A stretch of DNA of 64,000 bases from Elusimicrobiota bacterium (lineage in GTDB: Bacteria > Elusimicrobiota > Elusimicrobia > F11), in the NCBI GenBank assembly GCA_044221725.1, contig JBGAON010000003.1, positions 448,001 through 512,000 of the forward strand. The letters run 5' to 3'. Made by a program: the position numbers. Shown here piece after piece: positions 30,001-48,000 of the stretch (the stretch's first letter is position 1; every line of letters starts with the position of its first letter).

Positions 30001-33000
30001 CGGATTCTTCTTAAGCGCCGCTTCGAGCGCTTCGGGTTTCATTCCGTGGTCGTCGATCGGCACCGTGACGTATTTGCACTCGAACGTGTTGAACGATTGA
30101 ATCGCGCCGAGATAGGTTGGGTCTTCGACGAGCACCGCGTCGCCGCTATTGATGAAAATTTTTCCGAGCAATTCGAGCGCTTGCTGCGAGCCGTGTGTGA
30201 GCAACATTTGTTCGGGCGTCCCTTTGATTCCCTGCTTGCTTAGCCAATCGCACAGATACTGTTTGAGCGGACGCAGTCCCTCGGTTACCGTGTATTGCAG
30301 CGCTTTGGTGCCATCCTGACGCAGCGTCTCTCGTAGCGCAAGTTCAAATTTCTTTAATGGAAATGTTTCGGGTGCCGGAAGTCCGCCCGCGAACGAAATA
30401 ATTCCTGGTTTCGAGGAAACCTTGAGAATTTCGCGGATGATGGACGCGCGCATGCGCTTCGTTCGACGAGCAAAGGAATAGTGAACCATAGGGGCGGGAT
30501 GATACGAAATCCGTCACCCTGGAATGTCTCTATCCAAGGGTCCATTTTACCGATGGTTTCATTGGATCCTGGCTAACGACATGCCAGGACGACGACAGTA
30601 AGGGCGACGGTACTATTTTGAATTCATTACGAGCCGCAGCACTTCACCGCGGTCGGTCGCTTTGTCCAGCTTGTGGCGAATGTCCACGGCCGGCATGTTC
30701 GTCGCGTCAGAAATCGAATTCACGGCCGCTTGACGACGATCTTCGGCGAGCGTTGAATTCGGGCTGTTCGCGTAAACTTCCACGGTGAGCGGCTTGTTGG
30801 AATTTTCACGAATCACATCGATGGCGCGTGCCCAAAGGCCGTCCATGACCGGACGAAATGTGGCGTTGTCGTCTTGAAACAATCGCTTCGCGGCAAATTC
30901 AACCACGAGTTTTCCTTTCTGGTTGTACATGAGAGCGTCCAATTGGAAAGGTTCGCCCGGGAACGTGTTGGCATTCTCGTGTTCATCGTAGGTTACAAAC
31001 TGGTACGAGTAGAGCGTACCGACCGTTATGTACTGGCCGCGTTCATTAAGCCCGTTCCAATCAATTTGGCGCGGCGGAACGCCTTTGCCTTGAATGAGCT
31101 TTACCACCTCGCCATTTTGATCGGAGACGCGGAATTCCCAGCGTTTCGAAGCTACTTTCGAAAGCCCCGGATAAAACGTGACAAGTGGTGGTTCCGGAAT
31201 GAGCGGCAACGACGGCCGCAACACTTGATTCGAATTCAGCACACCGTAATTTTCAAAGTCTTCTTTGCTTGGGATTGGTTTTGCTTCTTGCAAAACTTTG
31301 TCCGTTTGCGCGGTGCCGCTTTCGATGATGTCTTTGACGTCCAATTCAATCGTCGGCGGTGGTTTCTGAATATCCAGCTGTTCTTTCACTTGCCCTTTCA
31401 CTGTTTCTGAGAGCGGCTCGGATCCCATCGTTTCTTTTTGTCCGCCACCCCCACTGTTCGTGGCCGCGGTGGCCTGAGTCTCTTCTTCGGCGTACGAGGG
31501 CTGAATCACGACAGCCGCGACAAACAGAAAATTCAAAAGAGAATATAAACGTTTCATAAATTAAACTCCTCTAAACACAAACGTGACCACACCTTCTTGA
31601 ATTTCGTTCGAGCGGCCCGCCGGTAGTCGACTGAAAATCCATTGTTGCAGAGAGCTGATCACCTTTTGATCGAACGTCGGACTTCCCGACGACACTTCGA
31701 CAATGATGCCATCCAAAACATTTCCGTTGGCGTTCACGCGAAAACGCAACGCGACACGGCAATCGATTTCGTAACGTGCAAAAGATTTTTGGACAATCGG
31801 TCGATTCGCAAGAGCACCGGTGATATTGAATCGCCCATCGCTGACCGACTTCATTCCCGCGGGTTGGGACTCACTAACCGTGTTGCGCGGCAGCGTTGAC
31901 ATTTGGGTGCCGGTCCCGCCGAAACCGGAACCGCCGCCGTAACTCCTGCCTCCTCCGCCACTTCCAAATCCGCTTCCGCTCGAATGACCGGAGCCCGTTC
32001 CACTCCCGCTTCCAGCGCCATAACCGTTTCCGCCCGATCCAGCGGCGCCACTTCCGGAACCCGTGGATCCCGCCGGTCCACCGACCGAAGCGCCGCCCAT
32101 CGCCAATCCTCCGCTCGAACCGCCGCCGTGCGACGAACTACTGCCCGAGAAGCCGCCGCTTGATGCGGATCCTTTCGGCGCAAAAGCCTTTGTCTGGAGT
32201 GCCGGCCCGGATCCGGGCCCGCCGCTCAACGAGCGCACGGCTGAACTTGTTTTGTTTCCGGTCTCGACCGGAATCGCGTTCACGTTCACCAATTGATCTT
32301 TCGCGTTCGAGTCGATGATCTTAAACGGCATATCTTTCTGCGCGACTTTGAATTTGTTTTCCTTGAGATTCGGTTCGGACTTTTGGAAATTTCCTTTCGA
32401 AGGCTGAACCAGCACCTGCTGCGTTTGTCCTTTCGAAATATCGAGTTCGTCCTTCTTCGCAAGGCCGTCGAAACCTTTCTTTTGAAACGGTTTGTCCGTC
32501 AAAGCGTCGGGTTTGTTCCAGGCCGGCTTGGCCGGTTCAACGGGAACCGCTGTTTGTTGGCCCATCGCGACTTCGGATTTCGCGCCCGGGCGTTCGCCCC
32601 TCACCAACGATTTCACCTTCGAGAAGAAACTTTGTTTTGGTCCGGTTCCACCGCCGGCCGGCTCGTAGCTCGGGATGTCGGACCGGAAATCCACATTCAC
32701 CAGCATATCACCCATTCCACCATTCCCACTTTCGGGCAGCGACAGCATTCCGCCTTTCCACAGCAACAACGTTGAGTGCACCGCGAGCGCGAATACCAAG
32801 CACGCGAAATCACGGCCCGAGAAATCAAATTTTATGCCGGTGGATGGAATTCCGTTAATGGGTTGCATCATTGGTTGGCTCCAATTTCCCCGCTCGTTGC
32901 GTGGTGGCAATGGCGACCGCGCGATTTCCGACATACCGGTTGACGGTGCGCAGGAAATTTTCGACGTTTCCGTACGGCAAATTCTTGTCGGCGCGCACGA

Positions 33001-45000: not shown

Positions 45001-48000
45001 TTTGAGCGCGGTTATTTCCACCGGAAGATCGGATTTAAGTGAGATCGATTTCGGAACCGCAACTTTAAAGCTTTGAATTTCGCTGGCGTGGATCGAGAGA
45101 ATTCCAAAAAAAACGACGGCCGCGCACGTAGCTATAATTTTTGTGAATCGTTTCATCGTTGCGTCCTCCTTGCACATTTCTCTCGATCGTTCGAGTAAAT
45201 CCCTGAAAACCTTAAATCACAATGTGTTTTTGGTCACAGGTTTGCCTTCCAAATGTCACCGAAACTTGTGACATAAGCTCGTGTGCAATGTTCATGCCAC
45301 GAATTAGCGACAGGAATCGTGTTGGTTTAGCGCGGTGATTTAGGAACGAGGGGCGAGGTTTGCGGACGAATTTTGCCGGGATGCGCGCGATGTTAAGACG
45401 GAAAAATCTTAGTGATCGCGGGTGACGACGAAATCGGTGAGGAGGTGCAGAACCTGGGCGGATGTGCCAAACGAGGCGAGAGCCGCATGCGCTTTTTTTG
45501 CAAACTTCAGAGCATGCAATTTCGATGAATCGAGTCCGAAAATTTCTGGGTAAGTGAGCTTTTTATTCGCACGGTCACTTCCTCTCTTGCCGAGTTTCAC
45601 CTTGTCCCCTACCACGTCGAGAATATCGTCGGTAATCTGAAAAATGAGACCCAGGCAATGCCCGTAGCGTTCCATGGCGGACACTTGTTTTCTGTTTCCC
45701 CCAGCCACAAGGGCGCCGGCCATAAGGCTTCCTTGGATGAGCGCCGCGGTTTTTTTGCGATGAATATAATCGAGTAATGCTTCCGGCGATCGAAATTCGG
45801 AATCTTTAAGATTTTTCCACCGGCCCTTGTCCGCTTTGATATCGGCAACTTGACCGCCAACCATGCCCCGGCTTCCGGCCGCCTGCGCGACGATCTTCAC
45901 GGCCTCGAGTGCACGCCGCGGCTCAATATTTTTTTTCTGCGAATTCTGAGCCAAAAGCTCGAATGCCCGAGTAAGCAGCGCGTCTCCGGCGAGAATTGCA
46001 ATGTCTTCACCGTAGACTTTGTGGTTCGTCGGCTTTCCGCGGCGAAGGTCGTCATTGTCCATGGCCGGCAAGTCATCGTGGATGAGCGAATACGTGTGAA
46101 CGAACTCCAGCGCACATGCCGTTTCTATAACGTCCGATGCTTTTCCCCCGCAGATTTCCGCGGCAGCGATAACGAGGATGGGGCGTAAGCGTTTTCCTCC
46201 GGCCATAACGGAATAGCGCATCGCATCGTGAATGATTGCGGGTTTGTCGGTGACACGGGGCAAAAAACGCAGCAGCGCCGTGTCGATGACTTTTCCATGC
46301 CGCCGAAAATAGCGGTCGAGCTCGGGTGTCACAGAACTGACTCGTAGATATGTTTTGTGTCGGCCACCGTACGTCGAACGTCCACTTGTGAGGTGACAGC
46401 AATAGCCGCCCGCACGATTTTGACCGCCGCACTGGTATCGCTCATCTTTCGATTAAAAGCTTCAAGAGCCTCGAGAAGGCCGAGGGCTGTCGGTTCGCCT
46501 TTAACGTACGGGATATAGAAGCCATTAACGTGGTCGGCTTCTTTCTCGATTCCTTCAAAAAAAACAAATTCCGGTACGGCACCATCGGCCGTGGCCAGCA
46601 CGGCGGCTCCGTTCATCTGCGCTTTCATGAAGCCGGTGGCCGATGCTTCGCGCGTGTCATCGGCCAGCATGATCGTACCGTCGACACCCTGATAAATCGT
46701 CGGCGCGTCCCACACGTTGAAGTTATCGATTGTAACGATTCGGTTCTGAAGACCTGGATCTTTCTCGAGGATATCCAACAAATCATAGACGATATCTTGT
46801 GCGTGATTGTCTTGCTGGTGCACCCGGCCGCCCACGAGAATCAACACATTCAGCGCATTGAATCGCGCCCGCCAATCGGGGTTCTTCAGCATTTTTACGA
46901 GCAGGTCCAGTCGTTTGTAGGGCGTGATACGGCGCGTCCATGCGATCACAAACCGATTTTCCGATTCCTTTGCCCAGTTCGGCCAAAGGTGACAGTGACG
47001 CCACGCCCAATCGAGCAGCGCTTTCTTTTTGGATTTTTTGATTTCAAGAAGCTGGGCATCGGCCAGCTGATCCGGGTTTGCGAATTCGGCAATCTGCCAA
47101 TCGGCCTTCCGTACGCCGTTCGTCACGTACTGAATTTTGTTTTTGAATTCGTGAAGCGACGGCATCGCTTTCATCACATCGCCGTGTTTCTTTGCGACAC
47201 CAAAAACAGCGTCGCAGGTGCCGACGAGCATGCTCGTAACATCGAGGCTTTTTTTCTGATCGTTCCAGCCCGGTTTGTTCAGGTAAATTTTTGGATCAAT
47301 TTTGACCAAATCCAGTGTGTGCTGATCCCAAATTGGATGCGCGTATTCCAACGGGGTGTGGTCGTTGAATATATATTTCGTGTGTGAGAAAAATGAATCG
47401 TTTTGGAACGAGTCTATGGCAAGTCTATCGTGTGCAAATATTGTCGGCGTCTCGCTAAGAACAATGATGTTCGGTTTCTCATTTAATTTTTTGCACAACG
47501 CCAAAGCACCGCGACCGACGAGCCAACTTTGTTTCAATCGCGTTTCGTGCGCCCACACGTGCGGATTTGTTGCCGTAAGATTGGTTGGCGCGTCTTTTGG
47601 CCCTGGATACACGATATCCGTGATGTGCGGAGCCGCGAGAAAATAAACCGTGGATTTTCCGTAATTCAGCTTCCAGACCGTGACATCAACGAGCTGGCCG
47701 TCGAACATTGGGAGCGCAAAGCCGAGCGACGTCGGTGTCAGCGAGGCGCGCAACGCGTTTCCAACGTTGCGCTTTTGAAGATTGATTTGTCCCCATTCGT
47801 GCCAGGCTTGGGCCCAAACGGTGTCGTATAACAGGCTTACGCCGACGACATTTAATCCGGCTTCGCCTTGCTCAAAAATGCGTTCGCGGAGCAAAGGACC
47901 GATGCCGCCCACCGATGTCGACATGGCGCACTCACGCGCTTTTTCGGCACCAAACCGCTTCGCGATATCATCGAGAAAAAATTTCGGAAGCGCCATTTCC

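Follow-up and report, generated by a model that had tools for sequence, protein, structure and literature searches.

An ExbB-ExbD-TonB operon encoded with a PorV-like barrel and its cargo in Elusimicrobiota: a candidate motor for a type IX-like carrier

Introduction

How might force be put on type IX-like carriers in bacteria in which GldLM is not found? Published descriptions restrict the type IX secretion system to Bacteroidota or the FCB group and name GldLM as its driver (PMC12618676, PMC11285876). Its energy-requiring step is the release of the carrier-substrate complex (PMC10994853), and its cargo genes pair with a carrier gene behind them (PMC12618676). The Elusimicrobiota have a SprA-like gene almost throughout and many cargo-carrier pairs, and GldM was found in none of 201 genomes of the phylum, by a search that had no working positive control. 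A 64,000-nucleotide stretch of one Elusimicrobiota genome, referred to here as the window, holds a Ton-type motor operon that also encodes such a pair. The reading preferred here is that the operon encodes a proton-driven motor dedicated to its own PorV carrier-cargo pair, to which we give a probability of about 0.45; its starting points are observations of gene order, folds, motor residues and co-inheritance of the cargo.

Organization of the operon

The operon consists of nine co-directional open reading frames on the minus strand of the window, from 45177 to 30613, which overlap or are separated by gaps of at most 40 bases (Table 1). The preliminary description had listed its content correctly: a 1,956-aa cargo, a PorV barrel, a 993-aa TPR protein, ExbB, two ExbD proteins, a TonB-like protein and a protein with an Ig/OmpA fold, termed X here, in that order. 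Of the span it gave, 30613..45156, the lower limit holds, but the gene run begins at 45177, and the upper limit given corresponds to the second ATG in the first reading frame (129 aa). This small exported protein has no Pfam or NCBIfam match and no homologue at E<=1e-3 among the proteins of the fetched loci, and is not a conserved part. A paralogous operon, placed earlier at C3:282378-290001, is present, but the module itself covers C3:282291-289222 and one further gene runs up to 290001; no PorV gene adjoins this copy.

Table 1. Features of the operon, with positions in the window
Feature	Position	Strand	Basis
Small exported protein, 129 aa from first ATG	44788..45177	-	ORF; opens gene run
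Cargo, 1,956-aa exported Ig-type surface protein	38921..44791	-	Signal-peptide-like start; Big_1 match below cut-off
Cargo C-terminal CTD-like domain	38924..39226	-	FlgD_ig 23.7, CHU_C 18.8, TIGR04183 14.7 bits, all below cut-off
PorV-like 14-strand outer-membrane barrel with C-terminal Ig domain	37427..38917	-	NF033709 above cut-off
FlgD/CTD-like Ig domain at barrel C-terminus	37685..37921	-	FlgD_ig 25.2 bits
Periplasmic TPR scaffold, 993 aa, without lipobox	34405..37386	-	TPR families, YbgF/CpoB-type repeats
ExbB/TolQ-type motor subunit	33698..34378	-	PF01618 98 bits
ExbD/TolR-type subunit 1	33292..33756	-	PF02472 67 bits; transmembrane Asp present
ExbD/TolR-type subunit 2, distinct paralogue	32855..33295	-	PF02472 77 bits; Asp21 present
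TonB-like force transducer	31561..32934	-	TonB_C above cut-off; TIGR01352 30.7 bits (cut-off 27.1)
Protein X, 314 aa	30613..31557	-	Fold model and conservation table
TonB-box-like strand in arm of X, residues 48-56	31390..31416	-	Pattern kept among homologues

Motor and transducer

Thr131 and Thr164 of ExbB are invariant in 43 aligned sequences, with a spacing that resembles Thr148/Thr181 of a known ExbB (PMC12905483), and Asp21 of the second ExbD is conserved in 94% of 84 sequences. The TonB-like protein is made up of one membrane helix bearing His53, a 303-aa Gly/Ser-rich linker (36% Gly plus Ser) and a TonB C-terminal domain; its family profile matches 16 solved TonB chains. The S/AxxxH motif of the helix is kept in 80 of 84 homologues, the Ser being replaced by Ala in the window protein and in 32 of the 84. 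The pore threonines, membrane Asp and transducer His of a Ton/Tol-type 5:2 motor are thus all present, and the prediction that the operon encodes an intact proton-driven motor is supported.

Cargo, barrel and scaffold

The first 1,850 aa of the cargo match cargo genes at Eisenbacteria-phylum loci as well as in other Elusimicrobiota, with E values from 1e-31 to 0. By this homology the window cargo belongs to a single family present in three phyla, which indicates that the cargo travels with the motor. Its CTD-like domain, with no T9SS CTD among its PDB matches, can be aligned with the C-terminal ends of other cargo proteins. A profile built from these ends finds 24 CTD-ending genes in the genome, 14 of which have a PorV-like gene after them.

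Family model, profile and fold all favour a PorV-family carrier for the barrel: it scores 125 bits on NF033709 (cut-off 90), its profile finds PorV (6h3i_F) at 1.5e-26 as against FadL at 4e-5, and its model (pLDDT 88) has PorV as best structural match (Z 32.4, rmsd 3.4, 272 aligned), with a FadL homologue nearly as close (Z 31.3). The score on the strict PorV equivalog NF033710 is 37.8, against a cut-off of 250. The C-terminal Ig domain of the barrel, which is retained in the Eisenbacteria-phylum loci, has structural counterparts at the C-termini of PorU (Z 11.3) and PorZ (Z 9.5); we infer that it serves as a periplasmic handle. PorV-like genes number 27 among the 2,284 called genes of this genome, and only one of the 27 adjoins a motor of this type. 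Most cargo-PorV pairs have no adjoining motor, so that a dedicated motor is not needed in general.

The TPR match to PorW/SprE had been reported as sub-threshold and generic, and so it is (84 bits against a cut-off of 250). SprE is a lipoprotein (PMC10994853); the lipobox pattern is missing in 36 of 37 TPR homologues and present in one, and this, together with the low score, speaks against the TPR protein being the SprE/PorW lipoprotein. No Glt model appears among its 19 NCBIfam matches, no search aimed at GltD or GltE having been made. At one locus (L114) the TPR protein is naturally fused to a PorV-family barrel.

Protein X and its TonB-box-like strand

Protein X has a signal peptide, an extended N-terminal arm, a FlgD-type Ig domain and an OmpA-like domain. 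The resemblance of its model to OmpA-like and FlgD folds, described before for a model of pLDDT 81, was recovered at pLDDT 85: OmpA-like folds align with Z up to 12.7 (rmsd 3.3, 116 aligned; Foldseek E 9e-5), and the FlgD fold is matched by Foldseek. PF00691 gives no match in X. OmpA-like domains bind wall peptide through a conserved Asp and Arg. The corresponding columns of X are mixed, with Arg in 47/125 and Gln in 55/125 at one and no majority at the other; judged from the alignment, the wall-binding motif is degenerate. A lipobox pattern is found in 5 of the 125 homologues.

The most conserved stretch of the arm is a strand resembling a TonB box. Its pattern, which was taken from the alignment itself, occurs in 73/125 homologues, compared with a mean of 6.5 and a maximum of 14 in shuffles, and genome-wide in 57 of 1,412; out of sample, X proteins of other phyla carry a related pattern in 14/16 cases. 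Among the N-termini of TonB-dependent receptors of the phylum, the form was recognized by eye in 4/24, and counting the pattern in 14 of them gave two strict and three loose matches. The strand is a likely handle for the TonB-like protein, and the proposed box would make the idea a simple two-protein binding question. In a cluster of 11 members (P0114), X is fused to C-terminal repeats read by eye from the sequence as barrel-like.

Distribution and gene linkage

The eight-gene order recurs in three phyla: Elusimicrobiota, Ca. Eisenbacteria and Krumholzibacteriia. Within the family it is complete in five of eight window-type loci, the other three ending at contig ends, and it is also found in seven genomes from four other families; the recurrence claimed in the preliminary description therefore stands, with its counts (5/7 loci, two cut, and three genomes of other families) revised. 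Its statement that X is in 11/11 other family genomes is borne out, although two hold weaker copies only and nine a window-type orthologue (61-84% identity). Two of its figures were not reproduced: the TPR gene, put at 4/40 genomes outside the family, has strong matches in 34/199, and in place of five of six TPR copies directly following a PorV-like gene, 14/51 Elusimicrobiota module copies adjoin a PorV gene and 37/51 have none beside them, many of these lying behind a threonyl-tRNA synthetase gene. In the Eisenbacteria phylum PorV directly precedes the TPR gene in 19/20 loci, and the cargo gene precedes PorV in all 17 uncut loci. PorV adjacency appears in separate branches of a quick ExbB tree (the window clade, L112, L113 and L054/L058), and also at L252 and L253. 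These observations support a genetic tie, recurrent and non-random, between the motor and both a CTD-type cargo and a PorV-like barrel.

Proposed mechanism and known systems

The cargo would cross the outer membrane through the SprA-like pore of the genome and then bind the PorV-like barrel encoded behind it. Five ExbB subunits and one copy of each ExbD would form a motor with a heterodimeric axle, on which the TonB-like protein would dock by its His-bearing helix. Through beta-strand addition, its C-terminal domain could take hold of the strand in the N-terminal arm of X, much as TonB holds the box of a receptor, while X and the TPR scaffold would connect to the Ig handle of the barrel. The pull may extract the loaded barrel from the pore, or reposition or tension the displayed surface protein. 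Module copies with no adjoining barrel would serve one encoded elsewhere.

For a dedicated motor we counted the order in three phyla, the PorV-TPR and X-barrel-like fusions, the intact motor residues, the shared cargo family, the recurring PorV adjacency, the conserved X strand and a SprA-like gene in all 36 module genomes. Counted against it were the 37/51 copies without PorV, the C3 copy of this genome among the unlinked, the motorless majority of cargo-PorV pairs, the derivation of the box pattern, the few receptor N-termini alike, the sub-threshold cargo CTD and SprA-like scores, and a TPR homologue in Tol-Pal operons.

As in the Bacteroidota T9SS, a cargo gene, here with a CTD-like end, is directly followed by a carrier barrel (SprB-SprF; type B CTD-PorP/SprF-PorE), the barrel has a PorV fold, the genome has a SprA-like gene, an OmpA-fold periplasmic partner is present (PorE there, X here) and a proton-driven force would act on the carrier. 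Unlike it, the motor is of ExbB/ExbD/TonB type and encoded with one cargo-carrier pair, the barrel appears to bear a periplasmic Ig handle, the TPR protein is no lipoprotein, and the CTD and SprA scores lie below cut-off. The SprA-like protein (1,799 aa, C4:344418-349817) reaches 108.5 bits against a cut-off of 200 and has no solved relative found by sequence in the PDB; that of an Eisenbacteria genome (G201) exceeds the cut-off. GldL, GldM and GldN were not found, in line with the earlier claim of a genome without GldLM, but the positive-control searches likewise gave no match. The PorU sortase (peptidase C25) has no match in this 94%-complete genome and is above cut-off in G201 and G202.

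The PVC-group TPR-tolQ-tolR-tolR-vWA operons, of unknown function, share the order of TPR, motor pentamer, two unlike tolR/exbD genes and transducer; the transducer head is a vWA domain there and a TonB domain here, and PorV, cargo and X are not described in the available text of that source (PMC12204202). No description of the eight-gene machine was found in the literature, and it looks undescribed.

Alternative explanations

The operon could be an accessory Tol-Pal-like envelope machine, in which the motor moves or releases X as a tether between wall and outer membrane, with the barrel as anchor only and the cargo link secondary. This is unlikely, yet the strongest of the rivals. Ton (ExbB-ExbD-TonB) and Tol-Pal (TolQ-TolR-TolA-TolB-Pal-CpoB) share with the operon the motor residues, the His-bearing helix, the TonB-type C-terminal domain, a box-like target strand, an OmpA-like fold and CpoB-like repeats, and TolA holds TolB through the kind of strand addition proposed here for X (PMC12905483). 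The six-gene core from TPR to X is more constant in Elusimicrobiota than the PorV link, the motor genes preceding X in 39/40 loci; the TPR protein scores 322 bits on the YbgF/CpoB model, with a homologue inside Tol-Pal operons of other families; and at some loci there is also a 1,000-aa multi-Ig protein whose OmpA domain is canonical. However, the operon has two ExbD genes and no receptor, TolB or Pal lipoprotein, its box-like strand belongs to a soluble Ig/OmpA protein, and the genome already has Pal, a CpoB-like TPR protein and TolB on C5 (TolB and Pal-type at C5:317467-318955) and a TolA-like motor set on C4. Moreover, module ExbBs group apart from Tol-like ExbBs in a quick tree (support 85), X varies at its wall-binding positions and the cargo is co-inherited across phyla.

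Somewhat less probable is a surface-motility machine of Agl-Glt logic, whose motor would drag a barrel-anchored adhesin along the cell. The Myxococcus core (AglR, AglQ, AglS with GltD, GltE, GltG, GltC) likewise has, by architecture alone, one ExbB, two different ExbD, a TonB-domain transducer and large periplasmic TPR proteins (PMC3169522). Its modelled complex pairs a strand of the partly unstructured GltF with the TonB domain of GltG, the role proposed for X (PMC11761067). Flavobacterium adhesins ride on carrier barrels (PMC10994853, PMC12618676), and the module is nearly missing from two small-genome families (1/121). Against this, the GltC model is silent in this genome and above cut-off in two myxobacterial positive controls; the TonB-like protein has no FHA domain match and scores 19 bits against 40 on AgmX/PglI; there is a single TPR gene where Agl-Glt has three, and GltA/B/H and CglB give way to a PorV-like barrel and its CTD cargo; the operon holds no track or cytoplasmic platform gene; and gliding is not attributed to the Agl-Glt core by itself (PMC3169522).

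The strong form of the earlier proposal, in which the module takes the place of GldLM and powers the whole of PorV/CTD export through the SprA-like pore, is improbable. The T9SS motor does pull carriers off the pore (PMC10994853), and GldM was not found in 201 genomes of the phylum, by a search that had no working positive control. All 36 genomes with a strong TPR match have a SprA-like gene, but so do 141 others without such a match: among 201 genomes, SprA-like genes occur in 177, PorV-family genes in 183 and the module in about 36. The module is therefore not the general energiser of GldLM-less export; its lack of universality had been acknowledged in the preliminary description. Loci were read in 12 SprA-like genomes that have just one MotA/ExbB gene, and there the lone 5:2 motor is of Tol type and not this module; the module is patchy in the Eisenbacteria phylum too (21/61); and a more widespread FliG-like/MotAB operon with its own PorV gene, a second motor tied to PorV, has its FliG-like gene in 72/201 genomes, with PorV directly before it in 19/20 chosen loci. 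The distribution points to a motor that acts for its own cargo rather than for other CTD proteins; of the claim that it serves the PorV/CTD system, what survives is an intact motor tied to PorV and cargo.

An ordinary Ton import motor beside the cargo-PorV pair by chance is very improbable: the transducer domain is of TonB type and none of the four TonB-dependent receptors of the genome has a recognised adjoining TonB gene, but the annotation of the module loci, made with no receptor profile, recognised no receptor gene, 4/36 module genomes (G112, G130, G194, G200) have no receptor match, many receptor-bearing genomes have no module, and the TPR protein, X and second ExbD are left unexplained. 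The receptor counts speak against a Ton import system with a linked or co-distributed receptor.

Implications

If the dedicated motor pulls on its carrier, force can reach a PorV-type barrel by a second route and TonB-type motors have a new output; this would also bear on the role of ancestral Agl-Glt-like modules. A broader and more tentative idea is that type IX-like carriers outside Bacteroidota might run without GldLM on interchangeable motors, a periplasmic handle connecting each of them to a PorV-like barrel of its own. In this operon the motor would be a Ton-type puller working via a soluble TonB-box adaptor; the other would be a FliG/MotAB-type rotor, encoded by a second operon on C3 in this genome. 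Either of them, or both, could shift a surface adhesin, giving an undescribed surface motility or retraction.

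Organization of the operon and its motor

The window spans C5:448001-512000 of genome G000 (2.82 Mb, 94% complete); close homologues of its sequences bear the name Elusimicrobiota. The operon comprises nine closely packed ORFs, whose coordinates are listed in the table together with those of related features. The first, of 129 amino acids, is without homologue among the fetched loci. Family scans assign weak CTD-type matches to the cargo, a PorV-family match above the cut-off and a C-terminal FlgD-type Ig domain to the barrel, and a weak FlgD match to the terminal protein, X. 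The intervening genes encode a 993-aa TPR protein, ExbB, two ExbD and a TonB-like transducer, which together with X form a six-gene module. Compared with the PDB, the cargo C-terminus yielded chance matches to G-protein beta subunits only. RNA contigs of three wastewater metatranscriptomes, all from a single study, give the region thin and patchy coverage, with neither strand nor joint transcript evident, as does a fourth run of unstated kind; a promoter and terminator scan returned fewer sites than in shuffles. The paralogous motor operon that the preliminary description had placed on contig C3 is indeed present there and has no PorV gene in front of it.

Coordinates of the operon and of related features (C3, C4 and C5 are contigs of G000; L numbers are fetched loci)
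Feature	Position	Content
Operon	window 45177 to 30613, minus strand	nine ORFs, overlapping or no more than 40 bases apart
Murein-recycling cluster	window 22311-27378	ordinary: MurQ, AnmK, sodium:solute symporter, NamZ
Cargo-PorV pair	window 48087-51148	615-aa CTD protein with Pro/Ser repeat, then 368-aa barrel
Cargo-PorV pair	window 59571-64000	3,457-aa cargo extending beyond the window, then 342-aa barrel
Paralogous motor operon	C3:282291-289222	six-gene core
Gene after paralogous X	C3:289219-290001 (L072:8219-9001)	260-aa TPR/MotB-like; with the paralogous module only, in the F11 family and one other
Second PorV-linked motor operon	C3:209236-267724 (L074); in a narrower delimitation C3:233852-267724	7,987-aa CTD-ending gene, PorV-TPR, FliG-domain+TPR protein, two long genes, MotA, MotB
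FliF/FliG-type cluster	C5:182557-187338 (L075)	TPR protein, FliF_C/FliG-domain protein, MotA, two MotB-like genes
SprA-like gene	C4:344418-349817 (L071:5418-10817)	1,799 aa; where present, almost always in single copy
Second ExbD genes	L034:10014-10508; L036:4465-4884	membrane Asp replaced by Asn

The motor looks functional by its residues. Across 43 sequences ExbB Thr131 and Thr164 do not vary; the membrane Asp is kept in both ExbD, and these residues match in motif and spacing the essential ExbB Thr148 and Thr181 and ExbD Asp25 of the Escherichia coli Ton system (PMC12905483). The Asn found in the second ExbD at two loci would be expected if one of two unlike subunits suffices as proton carrier. 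The transducer has a single membrane helix carrying His53, with the S/AxxxH motif in 80 of 84 homologues, and its C-terminal profile matches 16 solved TonB chains.

The barrel model (pLDDT 88) finds PorV as its best match with both Foldseek and VIA-align, the latter placing PorV (Z 32.4) little above a FadL homologue (Z 31.3); the sequence profile separates the two clearly (1.5e-26 versus 4e-5). PorU and PorZ have C-terminal domains that align with the barrel's own C-terminal Ig domain. Many of the 27 PorV-like genes of G000 bear C-terminal extensions (by eye, TPR, OmpA, FlgD-Ig and LysM-like), and this suggests that such extensions are periplasmic handles of several kinds. One locus (L114) encodes a PorV-TPR fusion downstream of a cargo exceeding 3,000 aa; a TPR-X fusion (P0132) was seen on one contig only and is a possible artefact.

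Protein X as a putative partner of the transducer

In the model of X (pLDDT 85), an arm of about 80 residues, predicted at low confidence, is joined to an Ig domain and an OmpA-like domain. In the latter, the positions that correspond to the canonical wall-binding residues are not conserved. The arm holds one conserved strand with the consensus L-x-[ED]-V-[VT]-[IV]-K-G-E. A pattern for it, counted on the same alignment from which it was derived, occurs in 73 of 125 X homologues, where shuffles give a mean of 6.5; of 1,412 genes of G000, 57 show it. Other phyla contributed 16 X proteins, none of which had been used in defining the pattern, and 14 of them carry a related one.

By eye, the strand resembles the N-terminal box region in 4 of 24 phylum receptor rows (one of the 24 being a wrong-frame ORF), including a receptor of G000 itself; among the 14 rows that could be cut, the pattern was counted in two under strict and three under loose matching. 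Strand addition is the mode by which both TonB and TolA bind their partners (PMC12905483), and GltF has been modelled as a strand donor to GltG (PMC11761067). From these likenesses we infer that X is a putative target of the TonB domain of the transducer, which takes up residues 362-457.

Conservation and linkage to PorV

X was found in all 11 other genomes of the F11 family, so called after the preliminary description, and the full gene order in five of eight window-type loci of that family, the remaining three ending at contig breaks; the first of these observations agrees with the preliminary description, as does the link between operon and PorV. In genome G148 the full order is spread over two contigs. 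Around long X matches in a sample of 201 Elusimicrobiota genomes, 40 loci were fetched: ExbB, two ExbD and TonB lie upstream of X in 39, a few of them with inserted genes, and the TPR gene is present in 37 of these 39, the other two being cut. In seven loci (L063, L065, L068, L069, L070, L117, L118) a multi-FlgD-type-Ig protein of 1,013–1,083 aa separates TPR from ExbB; two of these proteins were scanned, and each has a canonical OmpA domain at its end.

PorV lies immediately upstream of TPR in 8 of the 40 X loci and otherwise adjoins the module in three. A further 11 TPR loci include two behind PorV and one PorV-TPR fusion, bringing the PorV-linked copies to 14 of 51, spread over several branches of a quick ExbB tree. 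Six unlinked loci were tested, and all lie downstream of threonyl-tRNA synthetase. The TPR search scored four candidates per genome, so that copies may have been missed; the X search returned a similar set of genomes. Word-based homologue searches reach close relatives only. An ExbB scan of species genomes gave, among the matches listed, all six marker types in 3 of 80 loci, most being unrelated ExbB/TolQ loci.

Beyond Elusimicrobiota, the full order occurs in one Ca. Eisenbacteria and one Krumholzibacteriia genome. In the phylum of the former, TPR is present in 21 of 61 genomes (a count that includes G218, marked unpublished). PorV precedes TPR in 19 of 20 loci from 19 of these 21 genomes, and in each of the 17 uncut loci PorV in turn follows a cargo gene; these cargos are homologous to the window cargo beyond the CTD. 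The operon is a real cross-phylum envelope machine, and apparently an undescribed one: searches of an open-access library found no account of it, and the supplements of PMC12204202, which list motor loci, could include it. The nearest published gene order found is the PVC-type operon TPR-tolQ-tolR-tolR-vWA (PMC12204202).

A motor for its own carrier?

By its sequence, the operon works like a force transducer of the Ton/Tol/Agl type, with a predicted type IX-like output; by the membership criteria tested, it does not appear to belong to the T9SS, Tol-Pal or Agl-Glt systems. The simplest reading, to which we give a probability of about 0.45, is a motor dedicated to its own carrier-cargo pair. 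The transducer would grip X, X and TPR would reach the periplasmic Ig handle of the barrel, and the pull would extract, position or tension the displayed cargo. In Flavobacterium, pulling a loaded carrier off SprA costs energy and adhesins ride on carriers (PMC10994853). In the known T9SS, cargo genes pair with a downstream carrier gene, in some cases with a wall-binding PorE partner (PMC12618676).

An accessory envelope tether is an unlikely second, as G000 possesses separate Tol-Pal genes. Substitution for Tol-Pal was rejected because TolB matches are present in module genomes, G000 included. Motility of the kind driven by the Agl-Glt machinery, whose core complex is described in PMC3169522, is somewhat less probable still: GltC was not found in G000.

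That the module energizes export in general is improbable, and the earlier proposal that it stands in for GldLM is correspondingly unlikely: an SprA-like gene is found in 177 of the 201 genomes, small ones included (in G000 it falls below the cut-off), against 36 strong TPR matches. The latter remain from 40 after setting aside four weak ones, three of which proved at the locus to be Tol-Pal-associated TPR proteins. PorV-family genes occur in 183 genomes, and G000 has 24 CTD-ending genes, 14 of them directly followed by a PorV-like gene; the T9SS is described as restricted to Bacteroidota or the FCB group (PMC12618676, PMC11285876). GldM gave no match in the 201 genomes, in a search that, as for GldL and GldN, had no working positive control. 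Outside the F11 family, and excluding two small-genome families, 33 of 78 genomes carry the module. In most of the small genomes there is a single MotA/ExbB gene; it is of Tol type in all 13 loci read, and 12 of these 13 genomes have an SprA-like gene. Since kin genomes are not independent, these figures are counts and not a test. An import motor is the least probable reading, four module genomes being without receptor matches.

Other motor clusters

Dedication of a motor to one carrier would have company. FliG-like genes are present in 72 of the 201 genomes, and in 19 of 20 loci chosen from the 600–710-aa type (L260–L279) PorV stands immediately before the FliG-like gene; 15 of the 20 come from genomes without the Ton-type module. 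These PorV-linked FliG/MotAB operons imply that motors bound to single carrier genes recur in Elusimicrobiota.

At L103, L104, L107 and L111, and also at L105 and L106, a 909–943-aa homologue of the module's TPR protein lies upstream of ExbB/TolQ together with an unannotated gene encoding about 485 aa; four of these loci have them within a Pal-CpoB-TolA-TolB run or its remnants. The second small-genome family (L084–L091) shows the unusual tol order Pal, CpoB, TolA, TolB, TolQ, TolR, followed in L084–L086 by a 920-aa Ig/OmpA protein.
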